Assembly (NCBI GenBank): GCA_035288385.1
Contig: DATEAM010000130.1
Span: 1 to 57,265, forward strand
Source: Thermodesulfobacteriota bacterium
GTDB taxonomy: Bacteria > Desulfobacterota > GWC2-55-46 > JADFVP01
DNA: 57,265 nt
Direction of reading: 5' to 3'
The notes under the pieces were generated by a model. It made no database searches, was not told the origin of the DNA, and worked only from the letters and a program-made list of their open reading frames with translations. Positions within the stretch are counted from its first letter, which is position 1; each line of letters starts with the position of its first letter. Position numbers and translations under genes: made by a program. Positions 1 through 57,265 of the stretch are shown here, in pieces.

Positions 1-1659
1 GGCTTCTCCATAGCTATTAAGCCCTCCGTCTCCTTTTACTGCCCTTCGGCCAGGGGGGGCTGGGGGGCTGAGGGGGCCGGGGGGGGCGAGGGGGGCGATG
101 GAGGCTTTGAATTCCTCAAAAAACTCCTCGAGGACGAAGGGATTCGAAAGAACACGGACGACTCCAAGGCCCTTTACCTCTACTCGCGAGACAAGGGGGT
201 CTCCCCCAGGGGCCTCGATATAGATACCTCTCTCGCCTCCTATCTGCTGAACCCCTCGAGGGCGGACCACGGCATAGAGGCCCTCGTCTACGAGTTTTTG
301 GGAAGGCTTGAGAAACAGGGCGCCCTGACCGGGAAAGACATTAACGCCCATGCTATTGTTGCGTGCAGAAAAGCACGCAATATCTATGAGGTGGCTCAAA
401 AACTTAAGAAAGAGCTTGACGTTCATAAACTCGAGCCCCTCTACCGCACCATAGAGCTCCCCTTATCGGAGGTGCTCGCCTCGATGGAGTGTTACGGGAT
501 AAAGGTGGACTCCGCCATCTTAAGGAGCCTGTCCAGGGAACTCGAGGTGGACCTCGCGGAGCTGGAAAAATCCGTCTACCTCTCGGCCGGGATGGAGTTC
601 AACATAAACTCCCCAAAGCAGCTCTCCGAGGTGCTTTTCAAGAGGCTCGGCTTAAAACCCTTAAAGAAGACTAAGACAGGCTTTTCCACCGACGAGGAGG
701 TCCTTACAAGGCTCGCTACGGAGCACGATGTGCCCCGCCTCATACTCGGCTTCAGGGGCCTCTCGAAGATGAAGTCCACCTATGTGGACGCACTCCTGGG
801 GCTCATAAACCCTTCAACCGGACGGATCCATACCTCCTTCAACCAGACCGTTACGTCCACCGGCAGGCTCTCGAGCTCAAGGCCCAACCTCCAGAACATA
901 CCCGTTCGCGGAGAGACGGCGGCGCGCATAAGGGAGGCCTTTGTCGCAGAGAAGGGTTTCGCCTTCATCTGCGCCGATTACTCCCAGATAGAGCTCCGCA
1001 TAGTAGCCCACATGTCAGAAGACCCGAGCCTCATAGAGTCCTTCGCCAGGGGCGAGGACGTCCACTCGAGGACCGCCTGCCAGGTCTTCGGCATAAAGGA
1101 CCCGGTGGATGTCACCCCGGAGCAGAGGAGGAGGGCCAAGGCCATCAACTTCGGCATCATCTACGGCATGGGGCCCTATGGGCTCTCCACAGAGCTCGGC
1201 ATAACGGTAAACGAGGCCCGGGAGTACATAGAGAGCTACTTCGAGCACTACAGCTCTGTCAAGGGGTTCATAGACAGGACCGTAGAAGAGGCCGCGAACA
1301 AGGGGTATACTGAGACCCTCTTCGGCAGACGCCGCTACATCCCGGAACTTGAGAGCCCCTATGAGCCCACGAGGAGGTTCGGGGAGCGACTTGCCATAAA
1401 CACCCCGGTGCAGGGCTCGGCCGCCGACATCATAAAGGCCGCGATGATAAGGATTTACGAGGCCCTCGAAAAAGGCGGCTTGTCCTCGAGGATGATACTC
1501 CAGATACATGACGAACTCGTCCTCGAGGTCGCCTCCTCCGAGACGGAAGTGGTGGCGGAGACGGTGAGAAGAGAGATGGAGGGGGCCGTAAGGCTCAAGG
1601 TCCCCGTGGTGGTAAACCTCAAGTTCGGCGCCAACTGGCGCGCCGTCGAGCCCTTTTAG
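1..1659 (+). CDS. polA: DNA polymerase I, 5'-truncated by the window edge (3'-5' exo-like region plus family-A polymerase domain)
   Basis: Frame 1 is open from nt 1, with no stop before the listed 298 start. It carries the exo-region motif DTSLASYLLNP and polymerase motifs RRRAKAINFGIIYG, TPVQGSAADIIK and QIHDELVLE. Stop at 1657-1659. Confidence 0.95.
   Translation, partial: GFSIAIKPSVSFYCPSARGGWGAEGAGGGEGGDGGFEFLKKLLEDEGIRKNTDDSKALYLYSRDKGVSPRGLDIDTSLASYLLNPSRADHGIEALVYEFLGRLEKQGALTGKDINAHAIVACRKARNIYEVAQKLKKELDVHKLEPLYRTIELPLSEVLASMECYGIKVDSAILRSLSRELEVDLAELEKSVYLSAGMEFNINSPKQLSEVLFKRLGLKPLKKTKTGFSTDEEVLTRLATEHDVPRLILGFRGLSKMKSTYVDALLGLINPSTGRIHTSFNQTVTSTGRLSSSRPNLQNIPVRGETAARIREAFVAEKGFAFICADYSQIELRIVAHMSEDPSLIESFARGEDVHSRTACQVFGIKDPVDVTPEQRRRAKAINFGIIYGMGPYGLSTELGITVNEAREYIESYFEHYSSVKGFIDRTVEEAANKGYTETLFGRRRYIPELESPYEPTRRFGERLAINTPVQGSAADIIKAAMIRIYEALEKGGLSSRMILQIHDELVLEVASSETEVVAETVRREMEGAVRLKVPVVVNLKFGANWRAVEPF
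51..96 (+). repeat. G-run block (G7,G6,G5,G8,G6) in-frame within polA, encoding GGWGAEGAGGGEGG
   Basis: Direct reading: cagggggggc tggggggc tgagggggcc ggggggggc gaggggggc. Confidence 0.9.
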
Positions 1660-9198: not shown

Positions 9199-10313
9199 GT
9201 AGTAGGAAAACTTCGTAGGTATATTATCCTGTAGCGCGGAGCGCCGGTCATGGCGCCGCGCACGGGCACCCGCCCCTTCCGGCCCCCCCCCTCCCCGGCG
9301 GGGCTTATGAGGGCGAGGACGTTTTGGAGCCTGTAGAACTGGTTTTTGCCCGGCCCGGGGGCTATATTCTCTGAAAGGGTCTTTAACCCAACGTGATAGC
9401 CCCTCTCTATGAAGTGGCTTACGACCCCCGAGACCTCGTCCACCATGTCCTCGAAGAGATCCTCTGCGCCGGGGGAGGAATAATTTTCAAAGTTTATGAG
9501 GACCCTTCTTTCGCTCTCCGCATCGAACTCCTTGACCTTGAGACCGCCGCCGGAGGCGGCCGACCTCCAGTATATGAAGCGGGAGTCGTCCTGAAAGGTA
9601 TAGTCCCGGAGGTTATGGAGCTGTGTGCCGTCGCCCTTTCTCCTCGACGACCTCTGCCCGGTTGACCGTACGGGCGGCGGGGCGGCGGGCACGCGCACGC
9701 TCTTCGGCCTCGGATAGACGGTAACCTCGGCCTCCACAGACTCCTCCTTGCCCTTGCAAAAGAGCCCGAAGGGGAACCTCGTTGAGACCTTTATGGCGGT
9801 GAGCGTAAACCTGCCTCGCCTTTTGAAGACGTATCTCGCGTTTATCTGCTCTCTGTGACGGGGGGCGAGTCTTACGATGTAAGCCGGCTCGGAGCAGACA
9901 CCCTCGGCGCGGACCTCCTCAAGTCTGAAGGATATGGAGGCGAGCCGTGTTTTTTTGTTCTCGATGAAGTACTTCACCGCCGAGGGCTCGCCCTTGTAGA
10001 CGTGCCTGGGCACGCGTCTTCGGACCTTTACGCCCTTTAAGGTGACCTCGGACATGATCCCGGAGATGATTATGAGGGAAAGCAGGGTGGCTACCACAAG
10101 GTAGAGGAGGTTGTTCCCGGTGTTTATGGCGGCAAGCCCGATGAAGAAAAGAACGGCGAGAAACCACCAACCCTCGCGCGTGACCCTTAAAGACCTGGGA
10201 AGGAGAGACCCGCGCCTGCCCGACTGCGTTAAACCCCCGCGCTTCTCAAAAATCCTCCCGACGAGGACCGTGAGCCAGGGTAGTGGTACCGATATGGCGG
10301 GCCTTATGCTCAT
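9189..10313 (-). CDS. DUF58 family protein (MoxR-associated, vWA-like)
   Basis: N-terminal TM pair and the DUF58-type motif LRDYTFQDDSRFIYWRSAA. Sits between the MoxR ATPase and the transglutaminase, which is the classical triad. The C-terminal tail contains a G9 run on the coding strand (9283-9291). Confidence 0.75.
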   Translation of the reverse strand: MSIRPAISVPLPWLTVLVGRIFEKRGGLTQSGRRGSLLPRSLRVTREGWWFLAVLFFIGLAAINTGNNLLYLVVATLLSLIIISGIMSEVTLKGVKVRRRVPRHVYKGEPSAVKYFIENKKTRLASISFRLEEVRAEGVCSEPAYIVRLAPRHREQINARYVFKRRGRFTLTAIKVSTRFPFGLFCKGKEESVEAEVTVYPRPKSVRVPAAPPPVRSTGQRSSRRKGDGTQLHNLRDYTFQDDSRFIYWRSAASGGGLKVKEFDAESERRVLINFENYSSPGAEDLFEDMVDEVSGVVSHFIERGYHVGLKTLSENIAPGPGKNQFYRLQNVLALISPAGEGGGRKGRVPVRGAMTGAPRYRIIYLRSFPTTCS

Positions 10314-10342
10314 AACCTACGCTTGAAGATGGTTTATATTGT

Positions 10343-10520
10343 GGGGAACTTTCTGTAGAAAGTTCCCCCCAAACCCCCTTCAAAGACTTTTAGCTGATTA
10401 CCCTTTGGAGGTAGACCCCCTTCTACGCGAATTTCATCTCCCGGGGGTCTACCTCCAAAGGACAGCCAAAAATTTTTGGAAGGAGTTTGAGGAAACCTTT
10501 TTATAAAAAGGTTTCCTCAA
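10343..10520. repeat. Nested-palindrome intergenic element, copy A (three hairpins; ERIC/MITE-like)
   Basis: Hairpin 1 is ggggaacttt/aaagttcccc. The central hairpin has a 19-bp stem, cctttggaggtagaccccc/gggggtctacctccaaagg, with a 22-nt loop. Hairpin 3 is gaggaaaccttttt/aaaaaggtttcctc. Alignable to 20809-20994 along both arms. Confidence 0.75.
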
Positions 10521-10548
10521 TAAAATCCGTCTTCAATCGTCGGCCCGG

Positions 10549-11650: not shown

Positions 11651-11673
11651 GGGGGGCGGGGGGCGGGGGGCGG
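11651..11673 (+). repeat. (GGGGGGC)x3 perfect tandem repeat in the divergent moxR / pilin control region
   Basis: Direct reading: ggggggc ggggggc ggggggc gg. Confidence 0.9.
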
Positions 11674-13204: not shown

Positions 13205-15545
13205 GTTAATTTTCCTCTTTCTCTTTGCAGTCCTCGCCTTTTCACCCGCCGTGGTCTCCTCTCAGGAGATTATCGTCCTGAGGATAATAGTCAACGCCGT
13301 GGACCTTGGCGACAGCTTCGTCGTCCTGACCCCCGAGGGCGACGTATGGGTGGAGAGGGAGGTATTAACCAGGGCTCGCCTCAGGGACGGGGTGGGCTCT
13401 ACGGCGACCTTCGAGGAGAAGAGGTACGTCTCCCTCTCTTCCGTCCCCGGCCTCGAGTTCAACCTTAACGAAGAGGAAGTGTCCCTCGAGATAGAGGCCT
13501 CGGCCGGGCTTTTCGAGGAGCAGAAGATAGACGTGGCGCATAAAAGGCCCTACGAAATAGTCTATACGCGGGAGAACTCCGCTTTTTTCAACTACTCCCT
13601 CAACTACCACCCCGACGACTCGGCCGCAGACCTTTCCACCGAGCTCGGGGCGAGGGTGGGGGACTGGCTCGGCACGTCGACCTTCGGCTACGAAATCAAC
13701 TCTGAGCGCGACAGGTTCGTAAGGTTACTCACGACCCTTTCCATGGACGACAGACCGGGGCTCAGGAGGGTCAGCCTCGGGGACTTCAACTCCGCCTCGG
13801 GGGTCCTCGGCACGGGCACGATCCTCGGCGGGATAAATTTTTCTAAGGACTTCTCCATCAACCCCTATTTCCTCCAGTACCCGGCCCTCTCCTTGAGCGG
13901 CGCCCTCAAGACCCCCTCCGAGGTGGAGGTATATGTTAACGGGGTGCTCGTGAGGAGGGAAAAGCTCCTTCCCGGCGAGTTCGAGCTCTCAAACGTCCCG
14001 GCGAGCATAGGGCTCGGGTCCTCAGAGATAGTCATACGCGACGCCTACGGCGCCGAAGAGGTGGTGTCCGAAAGCTTCTTCTATACAGACAGGCTCTTGA
14101 AGCGCGGGCTCCACGAATACTCCTTAAGCCTCGGTTTCCTGAGAGAGGACCTCGGGGAGGAGAGCTTTTCCTACGGCGACCCCGTGGTCCAGGCCTTCCA
14201 TAACGTGGGCCTGACACGCGCCCTCAAGGGCGGGTACTCCCTCGAGGCGTCCCCCGAGCTTGTAAGCGCCGGGCCGACGGCCTCATTAAGGGTCATGAAC
14301 ATCGGGGTGGTGGACGCGGCGCTCTCGGTGAGCGGCTCAAGGAACAGGGGGGGCGTCGGGGGGTTTCTCGGATACTTTTTCAGGGGCCACCGGGTAAACG
14401 TGGCTCTCTCGCTAAGGTATCTTTCGAGGCACTACTCAAACCTCGCCATAGACGCCCTCGAGGATAAGCCGCGTTTGCAGTTCACCGGCTCGGCCGGAGT
14501 AAACCTCCCGAGAGTCGGCTCCTTTTCCGTGGATTACTCGACGACGGACTATTATACAGGCGAGGGGAGCGGGGGGGGAGGGGGGGGAGGGGACACGGAC
14601 CGTTATGCCCTCCTCTATACGAGGAACATTACGACCAGAGCGAACCTCTTCGCCACCGCATCGAGAACGGAGGTGGATAACGGGGAAGACACGGACGAGG
14701 TCTTCCTCGGCCTCCACGTTTATTTCGGAGGCGACGTCTCCGGGAGCCTCGGCTATACCGGGGGCGACGACGGGGAGGTAAAGAGGGCCTCGGTGCAAAG
14801 GAGCCTGCCCGTAGGCACGGGCCTTGGCTTCAGGGCCCAGGCCGAGGACCTGGGAGACGGGACTGACCTCCTTGCCGACGCCGACTATCAGACGGACTAC
14901 GGCACATTCGGCGCCGGCTACAGGGAGACGGGCCCGGATAAGGACTACTTCCTCTCAGCCTCGGGAGGAGTCGGCTACATAGACGGCTCCGTCTTTTTAA
15001 GCAGGCCCGTAACGGACAGCTTCGCCAAGGTGAAGGCTGGCGAAGTGGAGGACGTAAGGGTATATTACTTCGGAGAAGAGGCGGGCAGGACCGACTCCAG
15101 GGGCGAGTTGATAATCCCGGTATTGCGCTCATGGCGAGACAACAGGGTCGACATAGAAAAGCAGGACATCCCCATAAACTACTCCATCCCTTCGTCTACC
15201 ATGTACGTGAACCCGCCCCTGAGGAGCGGTTCCCTCGTGGAGTTCGACGTGACGAGGGTCCAGGGCCTCTCGGGCCATGTCTACGTCGTTTTAGAGGGCG
15301 AAAAGGTTCCTGTTGAATTTTCGAGGATGCTCGTTATACTTAAGGAGAGGGCGGTGGAGGGGCTTGTGGGCAGGCACGGAGAATTTTACGTGGAGAACGT
15401 CCCAGAGGGCACTCACCCGGCAAAGGTCTTTTTAAAGGAGAGGGCGTGCGTCTTCGTTATAACCGCCCCGGGAGGCGATGAGGCATGGGTGGACCTGGGG
15501 GACATGGTCTGCGAGTTGGGTGCAGAGGAGGTCACGGGGCAATGA
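13176..15545 (+). CDS. Outer-membrane fimbrial usher (CsuD-like)
   Basis: A 789-aa beta-rich protein with a signal peptide (LIFLFLFAVLAFSPAVVSSQE). It overlaps the chaperone 3' end and is followed by a second SCPU gene through an ATGA overlap. Contains in-frame G-run blocks at 14345-14363 and 14564-14592. Confidence 0.85.
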   Translation: MSKQACAPLKLIFLFLFAVLAFSPAVVSSQEIIVLRIIVNAVDLGDSFVVLTPEGDVWVEREVLTRARLRDGVGSTATFEEKRYVSLSSVPGLEFNLNEEEVSLEIEASAGLFEEQKIDVAHKRPYEIVYTRENSAFFNYSLNYHPDDSAADLSTELGARVGDWLGTSTFGYEINSERDRFVRLLTTLSMDDRPGLRRVSLGDFNSASGVLGTGTILGGINFSKDFSINPYFLQYPALSLSGALKTPSEVEVYVNGVLVRREKLLPGEFELSNVPASIGLGSSEIVIRDAYGAEEVVSESFFYTDRLLKRGLHEYSLSLGFLREDLGEESFSYGDPVVQAFHNVGLTRALKGGYSLEASPELVSAGPTASLRVMNIGVVDAALSVSGSRNRGGVGGFLGYFFRGHRVNVALSLRYLSRHYSNLAIDALEDKPRLQFTGSAGVNLPRVGSFSVDYSTTDYYTGEGSGGGGGGGDTDRYALLYTRNITTRANLFATASRTEVDNGEDTDEVFLGLHVYFGGDVSGSLGYTGGDDGEVKRASVQRSLPVGTGLGFRAQAEDLGDGTDLLADADYQTDYGTFGAGYRETGPDKDYFLSASGGVGYIDGSVFLSRPVTDSFAKVKAGEVEDVRVYYFGEEAGRTDSRGELIIPVLRSWRDNRVDIEKQDIPINYSIPSSTMYVNPPLRSGSLVEFDVTRVQGLSGHVYVVLEGEKVPVEFSRMLVILKERAVEGLVGRHGEFYVENVPEGTHPAKVFLKERACVFVITAPGGDEAWVDLGDMVCELGAEEVTGQ
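14564..14592 (+). repeat. G4-AGC-G8-A-G8-A-G4 block in-frame in the usher (encodes GSGGGGGGGD)
   Basis: Direct reading: ggggagcggggggggaggggggggagggg. Confidence 0.9.
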
Positions 15546-16003
15546 GGGTCCTAAGAGCGATAACTCTCGCGTCACTACTCATATTATTGCTGCCGGGACC
15601 GGCCAGGGGCGCCTGCAGCGTCTCTTCGACCCCGATAAACTTCCTCGGCTACGACGTCTTTCTTGCGAGCCCTCTGGACTCCACGGGCACGGTAACCCTC
15701 GACTGCGACGAGACGCCCACACCCGATGTAACGGTATCCATAAGCCAGAGCCCCAACTCCGGGGGGTTCTCCCCGAGGCGGATGAAGCACGCCGCGCTTC
15801 CCGACCTCCTTGACTACAACCTTTACACCGAGTCCACGAGGGTGAATATATGGGGCGACGGCACCGGGGGGACCTCTACGGTCTCGAGAAGGGTGCCGAG
15901 GAATGCGCCAAAGGCCCTTACCATATACGGCAGGGTCCCACCCCTTCAGGACGCCCCGGCGGGAGGTTATCTCGACACCCTTACGGTGACCATTACCTGG
16001 TAG
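15542..16003 (+). CDS. Second SCPU-domain fimbrial subunit (minor/tip subunit candidate)
   Basis: Signal peptide MRVLRAITLASLLILLLPGPARGA, then CSVSSTPINF ... the C-terminal GGYLDTLTVTITW. The ATG at 15542 overlaps the usher stop (ATGA). The track start at 15485 lies inside the usher. Confidence 0.8.
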   Translation: MRVLRAITLASLLILLLPGPARGACSVSSTPINFLGYDVFLASPLDSTGTVTLDCDETPTPDVTVSISQSPNSGGFSPRRMKHAALPDLLDYNLYTESTRVNIWGDGTGGTSTVSRRVPRNAPKALTIYGRVPPLQDAPAGGYLDTLTVTITW

Positions 16004-16373
16004 CGGGTCTTTTTACCGTAACCCGGCCCCCCAGAGGCCCCTCGGCTTTTTTTCCGCACTGCAGAGAACCCCATCTTTTTTTAAAACCCCCCCCCTGGGA
16101 AAGGCCCCTTATACCTCCATAAACGCACACCCCGTGGAAAGCGCACACTTGATGAACTTTTTTAACTCCCTACGGGAACTCGACGTTTTTTAAAGAAAAA
16201 ACCCACCCTTTTTTGATCATATCGAACCTCCCCCCTTCACATATGCCGAAAACGCGCATATAATTAGAATACAGGTTAAAGGCGTTTTGATTTTTACATT
16301 TAAAATCATGGGCTTTGCGAAGATGCCTCGTGGCACGGTTCTTTCTATGTATATGTATCAGGAGGAAGGGACC

Positions 16374-17282: not shown

Positions 17283-17358
17283 GCGGGAGTAGCTCAGTTG
17301 GTAGAGCGCAACCTTGCCAAGGTTGAGGTCGCGGGTTCGAGACCCGTCTCCCGCTCCA
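17283..17358 (+). tRNA. tRNA-Gly (anticodon GCC), CCA encoded
   Basis: 76 nt, gcgggagtagctcagttggtagagcgcaaccttGCCaaggttgaggtcgcgggttcgagacccgtctcccgctcca. Cloverleaf with a 7-bp acceptor stem, GTTCGAG T-loop and anticodon loop cttGCCaa. Very close to E. coli tRNA-Gly(GCC) as I remember it. Confidence 0.97.
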
Positions 17359-17375: not shown

Positions 17376-17459
17376 GGGGCCGTCTGTTGGGGGCTGACTG
17401 TCGGGGGCTGTCACTCGGGGGCTGACTGTCGGGGGCCGTCTGTCGGGGGAGACTCCCCC
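17376..17459 (+). repeat. Tandem array of six 13-15 bp G5-led units directly downstream of tRNA-Gly
   Basis: Units: ggggccgtctgtt / gggggctgactgtc / gggggctgtcactc / gggggctgactgtc / gggggccgtctgtc / gggggagactccccc. The unit order is A-B-C-B-A followed by a self-complementary unit. Confidence 0.9.
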
Positions 17460-20803: not shown

Positions 20804-20808
20804 TTTCT

Positions 20809-20994: not shown

Positions 20995-21039
20995 AATCAC
21001 CCTACCAAAAACCCCTTAGATGTGGTAGATTCAGGGCCT

Positions 21040-26861: not shown

Positions 26862-26960
26862 GGAGCCTTTCTGCAAGACACCCCTCGATGGATGAGGACG
26901 AAAGTTTTTGAAGGGGGGGGTGAGGGGAAAACTTTTTTCAAAAACCTTTCCTCCTGAAAA
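26862..26960. repeat. Internally deleted copy C of the nested-palindrome element
   Basis: A degenerate left arm (ggagcctttctgcaagacacccc) and the start of the central stem (gatggatgaggac) are joined to a right arm, aaagtttttgaaggggggggtgaggggaaaacttttttcaaaaacctttcctc. That arm aligns to 20939-20992. Confidence 0.5.
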
Positions 26961-36683: not shown

Positions 36684-36827
36684 TCTAAAAATATGTTGCT
36701 AATTCCGTGACTGACGGAATCAAGGTGGCCACCACCGGGGAACGGAATCCTTTCTCTATACTGCCGACCGTCTGGGCGAACGAGGTGTGAAAGCTCTATT
36801 CACATTCAAGTCCCGGGCGGTTTTTTT
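36684..36827 (+). ncRNA. Candidate small RNA or terminated leader of about 145 nt (class not recognised)
   Basis: Bounded by the promoter above and by a terminator: ccgtctggg (36768-36776) pairs with cccgggcgg (36812-36820), encloses a second hairpin (gtgtgaa/ttcacat) and is followed by T7 (36821-27). Internally, one ATTCCGT (36702-08) can pair with either of two ACGGAAT copies (36714-20 or 36742-48). The only ORF is a 5-codon one (36693-36710). Confidence 0.4.
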
Positions 36828-36831
36828 GTTT

Positions 36832-36885
36832 CAGGGGGATGAGGGGGGGTAGGCGGGCGGGGGGTACGGGGGGGCGGGGGGGCGG
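36832..36885 (+). repeat. Intergenic G-run block (G5,G7,G3,G6,G7,G7)
   Basis: Direct reading: cagggggatgagggggggtaggcgggcggggggtacgggggggcgggggggcgg. Confidence 0.9.
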
Positions 36886-44389: not shown

Positions 44390-45796
44390 ATGCGCGACAA
44401 AGCCGAAAACAGCGAAAAGAAGGTCTTTCTCGAGACCTTCGGCTGCCAGATGAACGACAACGACTCCGAGAGGCTCCTCGGCTTCCTAAGCGGTATGAAC
44501 TACGTGCCTACCGGGGAGCCGCAGGGTGCAGACCTCATAATAATAAACACCTGTTCCATCCGCGACAAGGCCGAGCAGAAGGTATATTCAACCCTCGGCA
44601 GGTTCAGGGCGATGAAGGATGAGAACCCCGGGCTTATAATAGGCGTCGCCGGCTGCGTGGCACAGCAGGCCGGTGAAAAGCTCCTCAAGAGGGCCCCTTA
44701 CCTCGACATGGTGGTGGGGACCAATAACGTGCACAGGATAGAGTCCCTTATAGACGAGGTCTCCCGGAGGAAGACAAGAGTGGTGGCTACGGAGATGAAC
44801 CCGGCAATAGACGCCGGGGAATACTCCGAAAGATACTTAAACTCCGGTCCCAGGGCCTTCGTGAGCATCATGCGGGGCTGCGACAACTTCTGCTCTTACT
44901 GCATCGTGCCCTTTACGAGGGGCAGGGAGGTGAGCAGGACCTCGTCAGAGATAATCGACGAGGTGCGCCGCCTCGCCGACATGGGCGTAAGAGAGGTTAC
45001 GCTCATCGGCCAGAACGTAAACTCCTACCGCGACCCTGAGAAGGGGGGAGAGTGGGCAGGGGGGGCAGGGGGGGCAGAGGGGGTCGGTTTTACCGGGCTT
45101 CTAAGGGGGGTGGCCGCCGTGGAGGGCATAGAGAGGGTAAGGTTCATAACCTCGCACCCGAAGGACATCTCCGGCGAATTAATCGGGCTTTTCAAGGACG
45201 AGCCGAAACTCTGCCGCCATATGCACCTGCCCGTGCAGTCCGGCTCTGACGCAGTGTTAAAGAGGATGGGCAGGGGCTATACGAGGCAGGCCTACCTCGA
45301 AAAGGTCTACCAGTTGAAGGAACTCTATCCCGATATGGCCGTTACCACCGACGTAATCGTCGGTTTTCCAGGCGAGACGAAGGCCGACTTCCGACTCACC
45401 ATGGACCTTGTGGAGGCCGTAAGGTACGACGGCATATTCTCCTTCAAGTACTCGCCGAGGCCAGGCACCAGGGCCGCGGGATTTGACGGACAGGTGCCTG
45501 ATGAGGTAAAATCAGATAGACTCTCCGTTTTGCAGGAGGCCCAGAAGGGGATTGCCGCCGAGAGGAACACCTCCCTCTTGGGAAAGACCCTCGAGGTCCT
45601 CGTGGAGGGCGGTAGCAGGCTCGACGCTACGGAGCTGACGGGCAGGTCCCCCTGCAACAGGGTGGTCAACTTCCCCGCCCCCGCCGCAGAAGGGCTCGCG
45701 GCCGGGATGCTCGCATACGTCGGGATAACCGCCGCGTTCACCAACTCGCTACGCGGGATATATAAAGAAAGGAGTGAGTCATGTTCTTGGAGATGA
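44390..45796 (+). CDS. miaB: tRNA-i6A37 methylthiotransferase
   Basis: UPF0004 N-domain (FLETFGCQMN, NTCSIR, GC), radical-SAM CDNFCSYCIVP and a TRAM C-terminus. Carries an in-frame G-run block at 45043-45083. Confidence 0.93.
   Translation: MRDKAENSEKKVFLETFGCQMNDNDSERLLGFLSGMNYVPTGEPQGADLIIINTCSIRDKAEQKVYSTLGRFRAMKDENPGLIIGVAGCVAQQAGEKLLKRAPYLDMVVGTNNVHRIESLIDEVSRRKTRVVATEMNPAIDAGEYSERYLNSGPRAFVSIMRGCDNFCSYCIVPFTRGREVSRTSSEIIDEVRRLADMGVREVTLIGQNVNSYRDPEKGGEWAGGAGGAEGVGFTGLLRGVAAVEGIERVRFITSHPKDISGELIGLFKDEPKLCRHMHLPVQSGSDAVLKRMGRGYTRQAYLEKVYQLKELYPDMAVTTDVIVGFPGETKADFRLTMDLVEAVRYDGIFSFKYSPRPGTRAAGFDGQVPDEVKSDRLSVLQEAQKGIAAERNTSLLGKTLEVLVEGGSRLDATELTGRSPCNRVVNFPAPAAEGLAAGMLAYVGITAAFTNSLRGIYKERSESCSWR
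45043..45083 (+). repeat. G-run block with repeated CAGGGGGGG units, in-frame in miaB (GGEWAGGAGGAEG)
   Basis: Direct reading: ggggggagagtgggcagggggggcagggggggcagaggggg. Confidence 0.9.
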
Positions 45797-46278: not shown

Positions 46279-46293
46279 AGAGCCCTCGGCAGT

Positions 46294-46351
46294 GGGGCAG
46301 CGGGGGGGGTGGCGGGAGGGGGTAGGGGGCAGGGGGCAAAAAGGTCGGGGG
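46294..46351 (+). repeat. Intergenic G-run block (G4,G8,G3,G5,G5,G5,G5)
   Basis: Direct reading, starting 16 nt after the BFN stop. Confidence 0.9.
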
Positions 46352-46501
46352 TCCGACAATCACCTTCCCCTGTTCACAGGGCCGCAGAGTTTTTTCACAC
46401 GATGAGTTGATATCCAGTAAAACGCTTGCCCGTCCCCGGACCGGGGTTTTGAAATTTCCGTAAAAAATCATTTGCGAAAGCCGGGGCCCCTTTGAGGCGC
46501 C

Positions 46502-46537
46502 GGGGGGGCTGGGCGCCGGGGGGGAGGGGGGGGGAGG
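46502..46537 (+). repeat. Intergenic G-run block (G7,G3,G7,G9) abutting the RBS of the PHP gene
   Basis: Direct reading: gggggggctgggcgccgggggggagggggggggagg. Ends 14 nt before the ATG at 46551. Confidence 0.9.
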
Positions 46538-46550
46538 ACCGAGTGAATCC

Positions 46551-50659: not shown

Positions 50660-53290
50660 ATGAAAAACCTTACCCCGGCCATGCGCCAGTACATGGAGAT
50701 AAAGGGCGAGAACCCGGACGCGATCCTTTTTTTCAGGATGGGGGACTTCTACGAGATGTTCTTCGACGACGCGGTAACCGCATCGAGGATAATGGGCATA
50801 GCCCTCACATCGAGGGACCGCGACCGCGAGATCCCCATGTGCGGGGTCCCATACCACTCGGCGAGGTCTTACATAGCGAAGCTCGTGGGAGAGGGGCTCA
50901 AGGTGGCCGTATGCGAGCAGGTCGGGGACCAGGGCCAGGCAGGGGCAGGGGGGGCAGGGGGAGGAGGGGTAGGAGGGGGGGGCAAGGGCATAGTAAGGAG
51001 GAAAGTAGTCAGGGTCATAACCCCGGGCACGGCAGTCGAGGACGAGCTCCTTGAGCCAGGAGCGAACAACTTCATAGCCGCGGCGAGCGTAAACTCCAGG
51101 AAATACGGTTTCGCCTACATGGACCTCTCAACAGGGGAGTTCCTCCTTACGGAGCTCGCCTCGAAAGAGGAGCTTACCGACGAGATAAGAAGGATAAGGC
51201 CCCTCGAGCTCATAGTCGAGAGGTCGAGGCAGGCTGAGTTCTCCTCCACGGACCCGTCCGTAAAAAAACTGACCCCCCTTCCGGAATACGACTTCGAAGA
51301 GGGGGTGGCCGCCGGGAGGATGAAGGCCCACTTCAGGACCCACTCCCTCGACGGCTTCGGCTGCTCCGGGCTACCCGCCGCCGTGAGCGCGGCAGGAGCG
51401 CTCCTCCATTACATAAAGGGCACCCAGAAGACCGAGCTCGCCCACATAAGGAAGTGCACGCCCTACTTCCCGGACGACTACCTCGTCCTCGACTCCACGA
51501 CGAGGAGGAACCTCGAGATAACGGCCAACTTGAGGTACGCCACGAAGGAAGGCACGCTCCTTGAGCTCCTCGACACCACCTCGACGGCCATGGGCGCAAG
51601 GAGGCTCAAGTCCTGGCTCCTCCACCCCCTTAAGGACGCCTCAGAGATAAACCGCAGGCTCGACGCCGTCGAAGAACTCGTGGAAAAGAGGGAGGCGAGG
51701 GAGGCGCTCGCCTCCCTCTTCAAAGACGTATACGACCTCGAGAGGCTCTGCGCCAGGGTCTCTCTCGCCATGGCCGGCCCGAGGGACTTGGCGGCCTTGA
51801 GGAACTCCCTTGAGAAGCTCCCCCGGGTGGCTGAAGCCGCTTCCGATTTGAGAGCACCCATGCTCAGCGAGCTCTCATCCAACATGGACCCGGTAAGCGA
51901 GGCCGCTTATGCAATAGGAAAGGCAGTGGTGGAAAACCCCCCGGCGACGGTCAGGGATGGGGGCGTTATAAGGGAGGGCTTCGACTCCGCCCTCGACGAA
52001 CTCAGGGAGATAGGCTCCGGGGGCAAGGACTGGATAGCGAGGCTCGAGGCCGGGGAGAGGAGGAGGACGGGCATAAACTCCCTCAAGGTGGGCTATAACA
52101 GGGTCTTCGGCTACTACATAGAGGTGACGAGGACGAACCTTCAGAGCGTGCCCCCGGAGTACACGAGGAAGCAGACCCTTGTGAACGCCGAGAGGTTCGT
52201 AACAGGGGAGCTCAAGGAGTGGGAGGACAGGATACTTACGGCCGAGGAGAAGGCCACAGAGCTCGAGGGAGAGCTCTTTTCCGACCTCGTGGAAACCCTC
52301 TCTCAGTATACGGAGAGAATCAGGAGTACCGCCGCCGTGGTCTCAACGCTCGACGCCCTTATCTCGCTTGCCCGCGCCTCGGAGAGAAACGGATACGCGA
52401 AGCCCGAGGTCGTAGAGGGCACTGAGATATTCATCCGCGACGGCAGGCACCCCGTGGTGGAGGCCTCTGCCGCAGGGGACTTCGTCCCCAACGATTTGAG
52501 CGTTGACGGCTCCACGAGCCAGGTCCTCGTCATCACGGGCCCCAACATGGCTGGAAAGTCCACGTACCTGAGACAGAACGCCCTCATTGTGCTGATGGCC
52601 CAGATTGGGTGTTTCGTCCCCGCGGCCGAGGCCAGAATCGGGGTGGTGGACAGGATATTCACGAGGGTGGGCGCCTCGGACGACCTCTCGAGGGGACAGT
52701 CTACCTTCATGGTGGAGATGAACGAGACGGCTAACATCCTCAATAACGCCACCCCAGGGAGCCTCGTCATACTCGACGAGATAGGCCGCGGCACCTCCAC
52801 CTTCGACGGGCTGAGCATCGCCTGGAGCGTCGTTGAGTACATCCACGACCACCCGGGGCTTAGGGCAAAGACCCTCTTCGCCACCCACTACCACGAGCTC
52901 ACAGAGCTTAACTTGACAAAGGAAAGGGTCAAAAATTATAATATGGCTGTCAAGGAGTGGAACGGAGAGGTGATATTCCTGAGGAAGGTGGTCCCCGGGG
53001 GTTCTTCCTCAAGTTACGGCATACAGGTGGCAAAGCTCGCGGGCCTGCCCGACAGGGTAATAGAGAGGGCGGGGGAGATATTGAGGAACCTCGAGAAGGG
53101 CGAGCTTACCGAGACCGGGGCCCCGAGGCTCGCCGCCCACGCCAAGGGTGAAGAAGAGATAAAACAGCTGAGCCTTCTCGGAGCGAAGGACGAACTGAGG
53201 GAGCGATTGAAGACTATCGACATCGAAAGGACCACGCCCATAGAGGCCCTCGATTTGCTTCATAAACTGAAAATGCTGCTGGATGAGTGA
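50660..53290 (+). CDS. mutS: DNA mismatch repair protein MutS
   Basis: TPAMRQYMEIK ... FFRMGDFYEMFFDDA ... ITGPNMAGKSTYLRQ ... DEIGRGTSTFDG ... THYHEL. The ATG at 50660 is preferred; in-frame upstream ATGs exist at 50630, 50639 and 50642. Carries an in-frame G-run block at 50924-50988. Confidence 0.95.
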   Translation: MKNLTPAMRQYMEIKGENPDAILFFRMGDFYEMFFDDAVTASRIMGIALTSRDRDREIPMCGVPYHSARSYIAKLVGEGLKVAVCEQVGDQGQAGAGGAGGGGVGGGGKGIVRRKVVRVITPGTAVEDELLEPGANNFIAAASVNSRKYGFAYMDLSTGEFLLTELASKEELTDEIRRIRPLELIVERSRQAEFSSTDPSVKKLTPLPEYDFEEGVAAGRMKAHFRTHSLDGFGCSGLPAAVSAAGALLHYIKGTQKTELAHIRKCTPYFPDDYLVLDSTTRRNLEITANLRYATKEGTLLELLDTTSTAMGARRLKSWLLHPLKDASEINRRLDAVEELVEKREAREALASLFKDVYDLERLCARVSLAMAGPRDLAALRNSLEKLPRVAEAASDLRAPMLSELSSNMDPVSEAAYAIGKAVVENPPATVRDGGVIREGFDSALDELREIGSGGKDWIARLEAGERRRTGINSLKVGYNRVFGYYIEVTRTNLQSVPPEYTRKQTLVNAERFVTGELKEWEDRILTAEEKATELEGELFSDLVETLSQYTERIRSTAAVVSTLDALISLARASERNGYAKPEVVEGTEIFIRDGRHPVVEASAAGDFVPNDLSVDGSTSQVLVITGPNMAGKSTYLRQNALIVLMAQIGCFVPAAEARIGVVDRIFTRVGASDDLSRGQSTFMVEMNETANILNNATPGSLVILDEIGRGTSTFDGLSIAWSVVEYIHDHPGLRAKTLFATHYHELTELNLTKERVKNYNMAVKEWNGEVIFLRKVVPGGSSSSYGIQVAKLAGLPDRVIERAGEILRNLEKGELTETGAPRLAAHAKGEEEIKQLSLLGAKDELRERLKTIDIERTTPIEALDLLHKLKMLLDE
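50924..50988 (+). repeat. G-run block in-frame in mutS (GDQGQAGAGGAGGGGVGGGGKG), including G7 and G8 homopolymers
   Basis: Direct reading: ggggaccagggccaggcaggggcagggggggcagggggaggaggggtaggaggggggggcaaggg. Confidence 0.9.
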
Positions 53291-53292: not shown

Positions 53293-54549
53293 ATGAGCCC
53301 GCGCGTCCTCCCCCCCCTGCCCCCCCTGCTGCCGCAGCCCCACATTGCGGGGTCTTCCCTTAAGACCCTCTTTGTGCTCCTGCTATTCCTCATCGCGGTC
53401 TTTATCCCCGACGAGGTATACCCCCTTGCGCCCATGACTCATGTAACGAGGATAAGGCACTGGTCCAACCCCGACTATACGAGGGTGGTAATAGACCTCT
53501 CGGAAAAGACCACTTACAGCTACAGGCTCCTGAAGCAGGACCCGTCCATCAACAAGCCAAGGCGCCTCTACGTGGACATCGAAGGAGGGACGCTCGGCAA
53601 GGAGATCGACAGGTCCATACCCATATACGACGGGCTTTTGATGGAGGCGAGGGCCGGGCAGTTCGACAGAAGCACCGTGAGGGTAGTGCTCGACATAGAA
53701 AGCATCGAGGAGTACAAGGTCTTTGCGCTCCAAAACCCCTTCAGGATCATAATAGACGTCTCGGGCAAGAGAAGGGCCTCGGGCCAGAAGGCCGATAGGG
53801 CTGAGGAGGCCGGGGGGGCCGGGGGGGTCAAAAGGGATTACGAAAAACAGGCTCTCAGGAAATATAAAAAGGGGTTGAGGATAGTCATAGACCCGGGCCA
53901 CGGCGGAAAGGACCCCGGGGCCATAGGCAGGAGTGGGCTCGAGGAAAAGGAGGTAACGCTCAAGATATCGGAGCTCCTCAGGGAAAAACTCTCAAAGAAA
54001 CTCGGCTCGGCCGAGATCATAATGACGAGAGACACGGACGTCTTCATCCCCCTCGAGGAGAGGACGGCCATAGCCAACAAGGTGGACGCGGACCTCTTCG
54101 TCTCCGTGCACATAAACGCGAGCCCCCGGAGGGCGGCGAGCGGGATCGAGACCTATATACTGAGCCGCGCCAAGGACGAAGAGGCCCGCAGGCTTGCGGC
54201 CAGAGAAAACGCCACCACCGCCGGGGCCTTAAGCGACCTGGAGTTCATACTCGCCGACCTCATAAAGACCGCGAAGACCAACGACTCGATGAGGCTCGCC
54301 GCCTCGGTGCAGGAAAACCTCGTTGACGGGCTCAAGACCAGGTACAGGGGGATAAACAGCAACGGCGTAAAGGGCGCCCCCTTCTACGTGCTCGTGGGCA
54401 CGAGGATGCCGAGCATACTCGTGGAGGTCTCCTTCATAAGCAACCCCACCGAGGAGAGGAGGCTTAAAGACCCGAGGTACTTGAGTACCGTAGTGGAGGG
54501 CATAGCCTCAGGAGTCATAGCCTACATAAACGGATCCGGGCTTACATAA
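53293..54549 (+). CDS. amiC: N-acetylmuramoyl-L-alanine amidase with N-terminal AMIN domain (AmiC-like)
   Basis: AMIN domain (RIRHWSNPDYTRVVIDL ... RLYVDI ... RVVLDI ... FRIIIDV) and Amidase_3 (IVIDPGHGGKDPGA ... SVHINA ... GIETY ... VEVSFISNP). A GTG at 53287 is an alternative start. Confidence 0.88.
   Translation: MSPRVLPPLPPLLPQPHIAGSSLKTLFVLLLFLIAVFIPDEVYPLAPMTHVTRIRHWSNPDYTRVVIDLSEKTTYSYRLLKQDPSINKPRRLYVDIEGGTLGKEIDRSIPIYDGLLMEARAGQFDRSTVRVVLDIESIEEYKVFALQNPFRIIIDVSGKRRASGQKADRAEEAGGAGGVKRDYEKQALRKYKKGLRIVIDPGHGGKDPGAIGRSGLEEKEVTLKISELLREKLSKKLGSAEIIMTRDTDVFIPLEERTAIANKVDADLFVSVHINASPRRAASGIETYILSRAKDEEARRLAARENATTAGALSDLEFILADLIKTAKTNDSMRLAASVQENLVDGLKTRYRGINSNGVKGAPFYVLVGTRMPSILVEVSFISNPTEERRLKDPRYLSTVVEGIASGVIAYINGSGLT
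53307..53341 (-). repeat. G-run block in reverse orientation (C8,C7,C4 on the + strand), read as Pro-rich PPLPPLLPQP in the amidase N-terminus
   Basis: The reverse complement of cctcccccccctgccccccctgctgccgcagcccc contains cagggggggcagggggggg, the same CAGGGGGGG unit seen in miaB and mutS. Confidence 0.85.
53809..53828 (+). repeat. (CCGGGGGGG)x2 in-frame in the amidase inter-domain linker (AGGAGG)
   Basis: Direct reading: ggccgggggggccgggggggt. Confidence 0.9.
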
Positions 54550-54601: not shown

Positions 54602-57265
54602 ATGTTCCATACCGGACTGCTGGACAGACTCAGGACTTCGAGGGAGAACCTCACCTCCGCGGTGAAGGATTATCTCAAGGGGTGCGAGGAGAACCTGAGG
54701 GAGGTCCACCTCGGGGGGGAAACTGGCACGGCTGTCTGCAGGGCCTACACCCTCGTAATAGACGACCTCCTGAAGACCCTCTTCGAGATAAAAACCGCGG
54801 AGAAAAGGCCCAAGGAGCCGACGGCCCTGGTGGCCATAGGGGGGTACGGCAGGGGAGAGCTCAACATCAGGTCCGATATAGACCTCATGCTCCTCCACAG
54901 GAACAGGGTAACTCCCGAGGTGGAGGACCTTACCCAGGGGATACTCTATATACTATGGGACACGGGACTCGACCTCGGTTTCAGCATACGCACGGTGGAG
55001 GAGTGCCTGAGGCTCGCCAAGGACGACTTGAAGACAATGACTTCACTCCTCGACCTGAGGTTCCTCCACGGTGAGCGCGCCATCTACGAAAACCTCGAGG
55101 CTGGCATAAGGAAAAAGCTCTTCAACAGGAGGAGGCTCAATTCCTTCATAAAGGAGAAGCTCGACGAGAGCGCCCAGAGGCACGAAAAGTTCGGCGGCTC
55201 CGTCTATACCCTCGAGCCCAACGTCAAGGAAGGGGAGGGGGGCCTGAGGGACCTCCACACGGCGCGGTGGATCATAAAGGCCCAGAACGGAGAGCCCGTG
55301 GAGCCCTTTTCCCTCGGACTCATCTCCGAGAAGGACAAGACCACCCTGCAGGGCTCCCTCGACTTTCTCCTCTGGGTCCGCAACGACCTCCACTTCGCCA
55401 CTTCGAGGAAGAGCGACCAGCTCACCTTCGACCATCAGGAACGGATTGCAAGGCTCCTCGCCTTCGAGACCACGGAGCGGGCTCTCGCCGTGGAGAACTT
55501 CATGCGCGACTACTACACCCACGCCGTAAACATCAGCCATTACTCGAACCTCATGCTCTCCAGGTGGCTCCACAGGGACAGAGCGAAGGCCTTCGGCTGG
55601 CCGAAAAAGAGGGTGAGGATAGACAAGGACTATTTCATATCCGGAGGGATGCTCAGGTGCAGGGACGAGGAGAAGGCAATAACGGACCCCGTAACGGCTA
55701 TGAAGGCCTTCGAGTACTCCCAGAGCTTCGGCGTGGAGATAGACCGCGCGGCCGAGGACATGGTGCTCGCCTTCCTGGAGGCCCATACCGGCGACCTTAC
55801 CGTCTCAAAGGAGGCTAACAGGGTCTTCCTGAAGATACTGAAGGGAAAGAACGTCCATAAGACGCTTGCCGAAATGCACCGCCTGAGGGTCCTCGAGAGG
55901 TTTATCCCCGAGTTCGAGGGGGTAAGGTGCAGGACCCAGCACGACCTCTACCACATATACACGGTGGACGTCCACACCCTCTTCGCCGTAAGGGAGCTCG
56001 AGAGGCTCAGGGACAGATACAAGTTCGACTATCCGCTCCTCTCCACCCTCTACGAGGAGCTCCCGAACCAGGAGGTCCTCGTCCTCTCTGTCCTCCTCCA
56101 CGACATAGGCAAGGCCTTTGGAAAGGGCCATTCGGAGAAAGGCGCGAGGGTGGCGCCCGGGATTTGCGGGAGGCTCGGTCTCTCGGAGGACGACTCCTCC
56201 ACGGCGGAGTTCCTCGTCAGAAACCACCTGATACTCGCCGACACCGCTCAGTACAGGGACCTCCATGACGAGAGGCTCATCGTGGAGTTCGCCAAGAGGG
56301 TGGGGGAGATCGAGAGGCTCTCTCTGCTATACCTCCTTACCTTCGCCGACGTCCGGGCCGTGGGCCCCGACGTCTGGAACCAGTGGAAGGGTACTCTATT
56401 CCAGGAACTCTACTTCAAGGCCCTTACGGTGCTCGAAAGGGGGGTCTTTGAGATAGAGGAGGCCGAGCCCCGGGTCCGGAGGATACAGAAGAGGGTGACC
56501 GAACTCCTCACCCCCGAGGGGATAACCAAGGACGCCGTAGGGGAGTTTTTCAAGCTCCTTCCCCAGAGGTATTTCCTCTCGAACCCGCCCGAGCTCATAG
56601 CGGGGCACCTGAAGACACTGAAGGGGTTTTCAGGCGAGAGGCCCCATGCCATGGACGTAAGGCAGGATACCGCGCGGGAGTACACGGAGGTCGTAATATG
56701 CACACACGACGCCCACGGGCTCTTCTCCATGATAGCCGGCGTCATGGCCGCAAACGGGGTAAACATCCTCGGGGCCCAGATAAACACCCTCAAGAACGGC
56801 ATAGCCCTCGACATACTCCAGGTCAACAGCCCCCACGAGGGCCTTGTCAAGGACGAGTACAAGATAAAGAAGATAGACTCGGACCTCGCGGACGTCATAA
56901 CGGGAAAAGTGGCCGTGGAAAAACTCGTGGGCAGGAGAAAACCCTCCATACTCGATAAGAAGGCGCGTCCAAGGGTCCCGACAAGGATACTTGTGGACAA
57001 CGACGTATCCGACTCCTACACCGTTATAGACATAAAGACTCAAAACAGGATCGGGCTCCTCTACGACATAACCCGCACCCTCACAGGGCTCGGCCTCTAT
57101 ATCCATATATCCAAGATATCGACGAAGGGCGACGAGGCCGCCGACATATTCTACACAAGGGACATCTTCGGACAGAAGATATACTACAAGGAGCGCCTCC
57201 GAGAGATAGTGGAGACCCTCGATGGCGTACTCGCCGAGGGAGGAAATGGGATGGAGGGGGGGGAG
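54602..57265 (+). CDS. glnD: [Protein-PII] uridylyltransferase / uridylyl-removing enzyme, 3'-truncated by the window edge
   Basis: Frame 2 is open from the ATG at 54602 to the last base (888 codons, translated by hand), and this ORF is absent from the supplied track. NTase motif VAIGGYGRGELNIRSDIDLMLL, then EPNVKEGEGGLRDLHT, HD domain HDLYHIYTVDVH ... LLHDIGK, and two ACT domains (TEVVICTHDAHGLFSMIAGVMAANGVNI; TVIDIKTQNRIGLLYDITRTL). Confidence 0.92.
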   Translation, partial: MFHTGLLDRLRTSRENLTSAVKDYLKGCEENLREVHLGGETGTAVCRAYTLVIDDLLKTLFEIKTAEKRPKEPTALVAIGGYGRGELNIRSDIDLMLLHRNRVTPEVEDLTQGILYILWDTGLDLGFSIRTVEECLRLAKDDLKTMTSLLDLRFLHGERAIYENLEAGIRKKLFNRRRLNSFIKEKLDESAQRHEKFGGSVYTLEPNVKEGEGGLRDLHTARWIIKAQNGEPVEPFSLGLISEKDKTTLQGSLDFLLWVRNDLHFATSRKSDQLTFDHQERIARLLAFETTERALAVENFMRDYYTHAVNISHYSNLMLSRWLHRDRAKAFGWPKKRVRIDKDYFISGGMLRCRDEEKAITDPVTAMKAFEYSQSFGVEIDRAAEDMVLAFLEAHTGDLTVSKEANRVFLKILKGKNVHKTLAEMHRLRVLERFIPEFEGVRCRTQHDLYHIYTVDVHTLFAVRELERLRDRYKFDYPLLSTLYEELPNQEVLVLSVLLHDIGKAFGKGHSEKGARVAPGICGRLGLSEDDSSTAEFLVRNHLILADTAQYRDLHDERLIVEFAKRVGEIERLSLLYLLTFADVRAVGPDVWNQWKGTLFQELYFKALTVLERGVFEIEEAEPRVRRIQKRVTELLTPEGITKDAVGEFFKLLPQRYFLSNPPELIAGHLKTLKGFSGERPHAMDVRQDTAREYTEVVICTHDAHGLFSMIAGVMAANGVNILGAQINTLKNGIALDILQVNSPHEGLVKDEYKIKKIDSDLADVITGKVAVEKLVGRRKPSILDKKARPRVPTRILVDNDVSDSYTVIDIKTQNRIGLLYDITRTLTGLGLYIHISKISTKGDEAADIFYTRDIFGQKIYYKERLREIVETLDGVLAEGGNGMEGGE

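Follow-up and report, generated by a model that had tools for sequence, protein, structure and literature searches.

Lineage-specific tandem repeats of G runs within genes and spacers of an uncultured Thermodesulfobacteriota contig

Where do blocks of closely spaced G runs come from when they occur both between genes and, in frame, inside conserved genes such as polA, miaB and mutS? The question is raised by a contig of 57,265 nucleotides (nt), deposited at NCBI, from an uncultured Thermodesulfobacteriota bacterium. This contig, the only one of its genome in the analysis, is called the window here. An initial annotation had listed 14 such blocks, every one of which was found where it had been placed, and had taken them for a dispersed repeat family made by one generating process, either slippage-driven expansion or insertion of a short G-rich cassette. 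The feature is real, statistically strong and lineage-specific, and it is of a known kind, namely simple-sequence repeats that make low-complexity protein inserts. Unusual are the G-homopolymer units, their density, and their presence in mutS, polA and miaB. Probably, the blocks are lineage-specific short tandem repeats of G runs that have grown by slippage or microhomology and have been filtered by selection to in-frame Gly/Ala loops.

A cluster was defined as two or more runs of at least five G or five C (G5+/C5+) with spacers of 4 nt or less. The window contains 15 clusters (0.26 per kb), compared with nine in 1.30 Mb of background, which consists of mutS neighbourhoods from 80 species (0.007 per kb; 0.008 per kb in the subset matched for G+C content, GC). 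It also holds 50 G6+ and 20 C6+ runs, and 19 canonical G-quadruplex (G4) motifs of the form G3+N1-7 x4, 14 on the + strand and 5 on the − strand, making 0.33 per kb against 0.045 per kb in the background. Two syntenic relatives, L087 and L088, with ~65% amino acid (aa) identity and the same gene order, were treated as decisive controls. At nearly the window's GC of 58.5%, L087 (58.2%) has two G/C6+ runs and no cluster in 21 kb, and L088 (60.7%) has seven runs and one cluster in 18 kb, as against 36 runs and eight clusters in the matching 24 kb of the window. The blocks had been described as four or more G5-G9 runs lying 1-4 nt apart, which fits only polA with its five runs. Others have two or three, and those at the DUF58 gene (C9), at 16087 (C9) and in glnD (G8) are each a single long run.

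Genes were called with a codon log-likelihood score, and the calls agree with Pfam (10 of 10 proteins tested) and with the genes predicted on contigs of sister strains and relatives. The + strand, which is rich in purines, holds 37 of the 40 called genes; with a second SCPU gene (15485-16003), counted in later tallies such as intergenic versus genic densities, the genes number 41. When synonymous codons are shuffled within genes, coding DNA gives G5+ and C5+ counts close to those observed (104 observed versus 106 in the null, and 73 versus 80, respectively). Thus, most short G runs and their sense-strand bias follow amino acid content and codon usage. Longer runs and groups of runs are in excess, however, with G6+ at 36 versus 28.5 expected (P about 0.07), G7+ at 18 versus 10.7 (P = 0.014), G4 motifs at 12 versus 7.7 (P = 0.036), and clusters at 7 versus 3.0 (P = 0.013). 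The initial annotation had anticipated that such a null might reproduce the pattern; it does so for the run count, but not for long runs and clustering. This null is conservative because it retains the Gly-rich loops, which are part of the phenomenon.

Outside genes, 31 G5+ runs compare with 18.2 in dinucleotide shuffles, and five clusters with 0.64, none of 500 shuffles reaching either observed number. The density of G/C6+ runs is 4.7 per kb between genes and 0.96 per kb within them, a difference of ~5-fold. L087 avoids G runs (G5+ 15 versus 28.3 expected; G6+ 0 versus 5.7). L088 shows neither avoidance nor excess, and the window shows an excess. The lineage has probably lost a G-run avoidance that its close relative L087 still shows.

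The preference of the blocks for G on the sense strand, claimed earlier, is present in genes, where 8 of 9 clusters or runs have it, but there the codon shuffle reproduces it, and it arises from Gly being commoner and better tolerated than Pro. Between genes it is 5 versus 3 when counted by locus, and 29 versus 13 for the + (sense) strand when G5+ runs are counted. With 37 of the 40 called genes on one strand, orientation to transcription and orientation to replication go together in the window. Nor does the genome prefer GGG, as had been supposed, since Gly is encoded by GGC at 47% and by GGG at 34%. Compared with L087 and L088, the window has a shifted codon usage, with CCC at 58% versus 39-40%, GGG at 34% versus 27-31%, and fewer of the CpG-containing codons CCG and GCG. 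For Arg, its coding sequence mostly uses AGG (63%).

At 11 of the blocks, Tandem Repeats Finder detects an array, the copies numbering 2-5.3 and the matches amounting to 75-100%. The period is 9 in all six in-gene arrays, which lie in polA (54-98, x5), the usher gene (14571-14592), miaB (45042-45083, x4.7), mutS (50942-50981, x4.4) and, twice, the amidase gene (53808-53827 and 53307-53329). The five intergenic arrays have periods of 7 (starting at 11651), 8 (36843), 7 (46305/46317), 10 (46518) and 14 (17376), none of them a multiple of three. The contrast of 6/6 in genes with 0/5 between genes gives P = 0.002 in Fisher's test. All in-gene blocks preserve the reading frame.

The codons inside the blocks point to the DNA rather than to the protein. 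GGG makes up 39 of 58 Gly codons in blocks versus 33% elsewhere, an enrichment with some circularity in it, G runs having been the criterion by which blocks were picked. An independent signal is the rare Ala codon GCA, at 8% genome-wide, which accounts for half of the Ala codons in blocks (6 of 12) and is confined there to miaB and mutS. In both genes GCA appears three times in succession within the repeated GCAGGGGGG unit (GCA GGG GGG). The units thus carry codons that protein-level selection would not choose, and their origin is at the DNA level.

A repeat search gave a different picture from that of a dispersed family. Blocks match one another at 73-90% only, from their G content; the polA and amidase blocks, for instance, are 90% identical over 30 nt. 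No shared flanks, conserved ends, inverted repeats or target duplications were found among them, and each block has its own unit. The CAGGGGGGG sub-unit that had been taken as a link between blocks is a generic one, and at least 120 metagenome contigs unrelated to the window carry the 20-mer CAGGGGGGGCAGGGGGGGCA, on either strand and in every frame. The 80 readable ones among them range from 38% to 77% GC, with none from the window species, and there it reads (AGG)n, (QGG)n, (RGG)n, (PPL)n, (PPA)n or (PPC)n, or lies in plain poly-G contig ends. Therefore, the shared sub-units are a generic trait of G-run repeats, not a family signature. The block at 17376-17459, which had been counted with the others, stands apart from the blocks of dense G runs, as its tandem repeat of 14 nt has spacers of 9 nt.

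Is the insertion of Gly-rich loops specific to this lineage? Among 16 orthologues compared with L087 and L088 over 7,203 aligned columns, no insertions peculiar to the window are larger than those in MiaB (10 aa), MutS (15 aa) and the amidase N-terminus (18 aa), and each of these three is a G/C-run block. As the initial annotation had held it against itself that distant orthologues might carry equivalent Gly loops, it is of note that the orthologue comparison finds they do not. The labels PolA, usher, MiaB, MutS and AMIN+Amidase_3 were confirmed by family, structure or homologue searches, and GlnD is backed by Pfam hits on the L088 orthologue and by 61.5% identity to that orthologue; DUF58 has a weak match only. 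Exact-protein look-ups with four window proteins adjoining blocks returned no match, and in a MutS scan of genome contigs the nearest among the matches listed is 62% identical.

The mutS block (50924..50988, + strand; protein HLC18389.1), with period 9 x4.4 and including G7 and G8 runs, reads GDQGQAGAGGAGGGGVGGGGKG in a loop of MutS domain I. The corresponding segment has 12 residues (e.g. VEDPSKAKGIVR) in 72 of 89 relatives at 55-67% identity versus 26 in the window, the longest seen; a few other lineages have insertions at the same site, and none of those is Gly-rich. Against E. coli MutS structures, the insert amounts to 14 residues between E. coli residues 101 and 102. In an AlphaFold2 model (mean predicted local distance difference test score, pLDDT, of 80.8), residues 92-110 are coil with pLDDT below 50 between two strands, so that the insert is predicted to be a disordered loop. 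The miaB block (45043..45083, +; HLC18384.1), with period 9 x4.7 in GCA GGG GGG units, reads GGEWAGGAGGAEG. Its loop has 20 residues versus a mode of 9 in relatives, and 9 more than the solved Bacteroides enzyme (7mjv). In relatives the MiaB loops are already small and Gly-containing, as in GTSGGGD and GAEGAGS, and to judge from these sequences they are plausible seeds for the block. The MutS and MiaB blocks, by these alignments, are lineage-specific insertions in indel-tolerant loops.

Other in-gene blocks lie in a linker or near termini. In the amidase gene, GCC GGG GGG x2.2 (53809..53828, +; period 9) reads AGGAGG in the linker between AMIN and Amidase_3. An N-terminal block (53307..53329, −), C8 TG C7 at 53310-53326 with period 9 x2.6, reads LPPLPPL and is the sole in-gene cluster with G on the antisense strand. 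The DUF58 run, C9 T C4 on the + strand (9283..9296; gene 9189-10313 on the − strand), reads PAGEGGGRK near the C-terminus, and the glnD G8 run (57253..57265, +) is at the C-terminal end of glnD, where the window stops inside the run. The usher gene (HLC18360.1) contains two + strand blocks. Block 2 (14564..14592; G4 AGC G8 A G8 A G4, period 9 x2.4), reading GEGSGGGGGGGD, is an insertion of ~9 residues versus relatives at 50-56% identity. Block 1 (14345..14363; G7 CGTC G6), reading RGGVGGF, consists of GGG codons on Gly positions conserved in relatives and is no insertion. That in-gene blocks always keep the frame, as described earlier, is correct. The polA block (51..96, +), five G5-G8 runs with period 9 x5, reads ARGGWGAEGAGGGEGGDGG in a loop of the 3′-5′ exonuclease domain. 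The loop is only three residues longer than in Klenow, which speaks for replacement more than insertion.

In that same domain (window 1-330; the PolA N-terminus is off the contig), the stretch aligned to the Klenow NLKYD motif reads DSKALY, and from this the proofreading domain may be inactive.

Same-species contigs came from four ENA samples, two JGI metagenomes and one Logan (SRA-run) assembly, at 99.5-99.9% identity, and the comparison spans ~37 kb of the window's unique sequence. Samples that contain the species include SRR3989307, SRR3972149 and SRR3990170, JGI 3300025314 and 3300025146, and the runs underlying ERZ27254809, ERZ27254843, ERZ27254844 and ERZ27254873. Indels occur at four loci, each of them in a block; more than 100 substitutions lie elsewhere. 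As blocks make up 1% of the compared sequence, the chance of all four loci being in blocks is about 1e-8. In mutS, sister strains lack 33 nt (50941-50973), in frame and with AGGGG microhomology flanks; this short form occurs in two different protein variants. In miaB, the sister strain L085/P0243 has 3 additional nt at 45066, encoding one extra Gly. The repeat at 17376 is shorter by one 14-nt unit in each of L209 and L210. The fourth locus, a C-run cluster at 10365-10378, has a 1-nt change. At most blocks the length is unchanged, as for the DUF58 run in L209, the blocks at 11651 and 16087 in L209 and L210, and the two amidase blocks (53307 and 53809) in L081. Usher block 2 has strain variants of equal length, one with a G-to-E change within the run. 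No out-of-frame length variant was seen at the blocks, in the small sample of 2-6 strain sequences per locus.

The contigs themselves tend to break at blocks. Among 12 same-species contig ends, 7, including both window ends, are within 50 nt of a block, in five independent assemblies (L081, L085 and L086 are among the contigs). The polA block begins 50 nt from the window start, and L081 ends 3 nt past the window end in the glnD run. The first bases of L085 are G20 in place of the G7CG7C of the window, and this has the look of a poly-G artefact. Two sister contigs begin at 36868 and 36889, by the intergenic block 36832-36885, and two sister contigs stop 11-49 nt before the block 46294-46351. 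Such ends fit the known difficulty of sequencing G4-type motifs (PMC10519405), and block lengths therefore need some caution.

We conceived the following course for the growth of the blocks. Its starting points would be G-rich seeds already present, for example Gly-Gly codons or spacers of high GC. These would then be lengthened or altered in place, either by replication slippage or by neighbouring G runs misaligning through microhomology, giving units of 7-10 nt, in which 1-3 further bases accompany a G5-G9 run, and the one 14-nt repeat. Within genes only changes by multiples of three would survive, and this would yield the 9-nt periodicity, whereas any period would be allowed between genes. 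Survival would further be limited to indel-tolerant surface loops, linkers and termini, where G on the sense strand is read as flexible Gly/Ala loops. Of the two processes named at the outset, slippage-type expansion fits best with the head-to-tail arrays and with relatives that lack the blocks, and the cassette part of that claim fails.

Several points weigh against this course. The evidence comes from one 57-kb contig, and the results leave the behaviour of this lineage in particular without explanation. Whereas the indel in the 14-nt repeat is exactly one unit, the in-gene indels of 33 and 3 nt are not simple multiples of period 9, fitting microhomology deletion and codon-level slippage and not clean unit slippage. 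The blocks at 9283, 11651, 14345, 14564, 16087, 53310 and 53809 have the same length in 2-5 strains; with most blocks identical in length among strains, they are not hypermutable. All same-species data are short-read metagenome assemblies, and indel errors are elevated at G4 motifs in short-read data (PMC10519405). The long mutS allele is present only in the window's own assembly, although it holds unique sequence that the short allele cannot generate. Finally, no intermediate relatives (67-98% identity) are in the databases, and the expansion history is thus untraceable.

Growth in place has to be weighed against readings that require no such process. If ordinary codon usage combined with protein-level selection for Gly-rich loops were enough, the synonymous shuffle would match the G5+ count and the sense/antisense ratio, as it does, and G runs would sit on conserved Gly, as they do in usher block 1 and in accA. 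We regard this as very unlikely, nevertheless, for the null falls short of the observed long runs and clusters, non-coding DNA is ~5-fold richer in this repeat type, the rare GCA is repeated within units, relatives lack the Gly loops, and strain indels are confined to blocks. A functional origin is also unlikely, albeit somewhat less so, in which the blocks would be G4 elements under sense-strand selection, RNA or DNA G4s tuning transcription, translation or mRNA stability, or aiding thermal adaptation. That most blocks fit the canonical G4 pattern, as noted earlier, is borne out by 9 of the 14 listed blocks in a regular-expression search, and the added C-run block 53310-53326 fits too; those at 14345, 16087 and 17376 fail the pattern, and that at 11651 has a G4Hunter score of 2.92 despite failing the regular expression. 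Regions with a peak G4Hunter window score of 2.0 or more number 19, versus 29 in the 1.3 Mb of background. With G4 energies in ViennaRNA, predicted structures are roughly 10-50 kcal/mol more stable than without G4s, and G4 formation by the blocks is strongly predicted from such models. G4-rich bacterial genomes are known (PMC6539912), the block at 46502-46537 overlaps a GGAGG 13 nt before a start codon, and the 29 versus 13 intergenic runs favour the sense strand. But L087 and L088 are without blocks at the orthologous sites, the blocks lie in unrelated loops of unrelated housekeeping proteins, and their sequences and lengths vary among strains. Moreover, the block at 36832 is in a spacer between a terminator and a downstream conserved TTGACA, the locus bias between genes is 5 to 3, and that in genes is explained by coding. 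A functional role is disfavoured because there is no positional conservation.

A subset of blocks might instead be phase-variation switches: (GGGGGGC)3 before the pilus operon, the two G8 runs of the usher gene, and possibly the mutS G8 as a mutator switch. A heptanucleotide repeat and long G runs, lying within and ahead of an operon for a surface pilus, are the classic setting for phase variation by repeats (PMC11868660), and the polymorphic mutS block carries G7 and G8 runs. We find this quite unlikely, since 3-6 strain sequences at the candidate loci show no frameshifted or ±1-nt variants, the pilus-region blocks are constant in length, the sole disrupted usher allele (L209) has no indel, and like blocks are in polA, miaB, amidase and glnD genes, where on/off switching makes no sense. 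There is little to recommend a short G-rich cassette inserted at many sites, by a mobile element or by an enzyme adding G-rich filler DNA, for example during break repair. The loose likeness among blocks, highest between polA and amidase, would suit it, as would the two blocks at a junction where two genes present in relatives are missing. The lack of conserved ends, inverted repeats and target duplications, the separate unit and period of each block, the generic low complexity of the shared 20-mer, and the seeds visible in relatives (MiaB GTSGGGD; a GC-rich stretch after the ZTP terminator) all make it highly improbable. Least credible is an artefact of sequencing or assembly, for instance the poly-G that two-colour Illumina chemistry can produce. 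It would account for the G20 start of L085, for contig ends near blocks and for some metagenome motif matches that are obvious poly-G contig ends. The internal blocks, however, are bordered left and right by unique sequence, stay in frame wherever the gene around them is intact, and recur in independent assemblies (several ENA samples, JGI metagenomes and SRA runs), and the long mutS allele has unique sequence that neither collapse nor expansion of the short allele could yield.

Growth by slippage or microhomology could be part of something larger. The lineage might have switched to genome-wide expansion of G-run microsatellites, through an altered G4-resolving helicase, polymerase or mismatch repair, with its indels and new protein loops stemming mainly from G4-prone repeats on the sense strand. 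In the mismatch-binding domain of MutS, the polymorphic poly-Gly insert (G7, G8) would then be a product and possibly a modulator of the process, a mutator switch. This we hold to be doubtful and improbable.

Low-complexity, repeat-encoded inserts in conserved proteins occur as the Asn-rich inserts of Plasmodium. The GC-rich, Gly-rich repeats of Mycobacterium PE_PGRS (PMC13328622, PMC10801317) resemble the blocks in that mutational bias writes length-polymorphic, homopolymer-like tracts into loops. Unlike both, the present inserts are short (3-15 aa), are made of G homopolymers and not of GGN/GCN codon repeats, and are in several gene families.

In the coding regions of prokaryotes, the simple repeats that mutate most readily are normally suppressed (Lin & Kussell 2012, PMC3315296). 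The blocks share with prokaryotic simple sequence repeats (PMC3315296) the head-to-tail short units, the strain indel hotspots, the restriction to multiples of three in genes, and the placement in loops and termini, but differ in the excess of long G runs and clusters in mutS, polA and miaB. In E. coli, G4-forming repeats are hotspots of frameshifts and deletions at rates that depend on DinG and RecQ, and transcription and strand orientation matter (PMC10530614). The proposed growth of the blocks agrees with that work. Those are likewise G-tract repeats with deletions, partial deletions and slippage, although they were cloned reporters with measured rates, whereas here the repeats are natural and the polymorphisms few. 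With the G7-G9 runs in and upstream of the pilus operon, the window recalls the phase-variable G/C tracts of Campylobacter, Neisseria and Haemophilus (PMC11868660), from which it differs by showing no ±1 frameshift variants and by having blocks mostly in housekeeping genes with in-frame variation, if any.

In density of predicted G4s the window is like the G4-rich genomes of Deinococcus-Thermus and some Actinobacteria (PMC6539912). Our own implementation of G4Hunter gives 3.9 per kb for the window and 1.36 per kb for the 1.3-Mb background, the bacterial mean being 1.34 per kb (PMC6539912). Scores above 2 were found 86 times in 1,627 genomes (PMC6539912), a region score that is not comparable with the peak-window score used here. 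While those G4-rich genomes have 65-70% GC and many weak motifs, the window has 58% GC with its excess in a few very strong, clustered tandem G5-G9 blocks, and relatives of the same GC do not have them.

If the blocks did grow in this way, they would be a natural bacterial case in which DNA-level repeat dynamics, not protein-level selection, write loops into MutS, MiaB, PolA, an amidase and a pilus usher. They mark a lineage without the usual avoidance of long G runs, next to a syntenic relative of the same GC that retains it. Should this hold for the whole genome, the organism would lend itself well, as a natural system, to studying why G4-prone repeats stay rare in most bacteria. As the blocks lie at most contig ends in five assemblies, they probably fragment metagenome-assembled genomes of the group and hide further copies.

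The blocks between genes adjoin diverse neighbours. (GGGGGGC)x3.3 with period 7 (11651..11673, +) separates the divergent MoxR gene (− strand) from a SCPU-PapD-usher-SCPU pilus operon, and the single C9 run (16087..16095, −) directly follows a T-run downstream of the second SCPU gene. The 14-nt repeat GGGGCTGTCTGTCG x5.3 (17376..17459, +) is between tRNA-Gly(GCC) at 17283-17358 and fur. In a search against Rfam, none of the intergenic blocks was explained, only the tRNA and a ZTP riboswitch being found, each adjoining a block.

In the pilus operon, the L209 usher is split into products of 632 and 145 aa at ~window 15070-15110. Because there is no indel versus the window there, a point mutation is a simpler cause of the break than a frameshift in a G run, and the gene may be a pseudogene in L209, judging from this sequence.

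The block GGGGGGGC (36832..36885, +; period 8 x5.2) has the conserved terminator of the ZTP riboswitch on one side and a conserved TTGACA hexamer on the other, at a place where L087 has a short GC-rich stretch only. From its sequence the hexamer may belong to a promoter upstream of the isocitrate dehydrogenase gene. The ZMP/ZTP riboswitch aptamer and its intrinsic terminator (36697-36784) precede genes for a monomeric isocitrate dehydrogenase and citrate-lyase-like proteins, a gene set unusual for such a riboswitch, and are kept in the 65%-identity relative (L087 2477-2564).

Two more blocks lie between a BFN-domain gene and a PHP gene. One, with periods 7 and 14 (46294..46351, +), directly follows the BFN-domain gene stop codon. 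The other (46502..46537, +; G7...G7 A G9 AGG, period 10 x2) ends 13 nt before the PHP gene ATG, and the GGAGG it overlaps is a possible ribosome-binding site of that gene. At this junction (46279-46550), two genes are absent that both relatives carry (L087 11877-14531; L088 3217-5723), one for an unknown protein of 322-373 aa and one for a PatA_N response regulator. No remnants of either were found in the 272-nt spacer, which holds the two G blocks.

More isolated G8 runs are present in genes, at 4387-4394 in a sensor kinase gene, where the run is unaltered in the sister contigs L082 and L209, at 24925-24932 in accA, and at 26913-26920, in the first codons of the gene at 26908-28056.

Separately from the blocks, the window has a dispersed intergenic element of ~200 nt, with copies at 10314-10548 (− strand) and 20804-21021, which are 83% identical (mean column identity) after one is reverse-complemented. 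The C-run cluster C6 AAA C5 (10365..10378, −), the site of the only 1-nt strain indel, is within the first copy. Rfam gave no match for the element. Each copy has three hairpin palindromes, e.g. GGGGAACTTT...AAAGTTCCCC, and a long TGGAGG.AGACCCCC / GGGGGTCT.CCTCCA stem. Both copies are between co-transcribed genes in the same orientation to transcription, and a partial palindrome copy is at 26915. What looks like a different, truly dispersed G/C-run element was seen in the unrelated contig L139 (WSSedB1CaDRAFT_10001623; 42% GC), which has three copies of a repeat with a C-run arm at ~1820-1925, 6192-6298 and 8098-8201. In two of them a G-run arm ~70 nt away could form a hairpin, and in the third copy the second arm is a C run.

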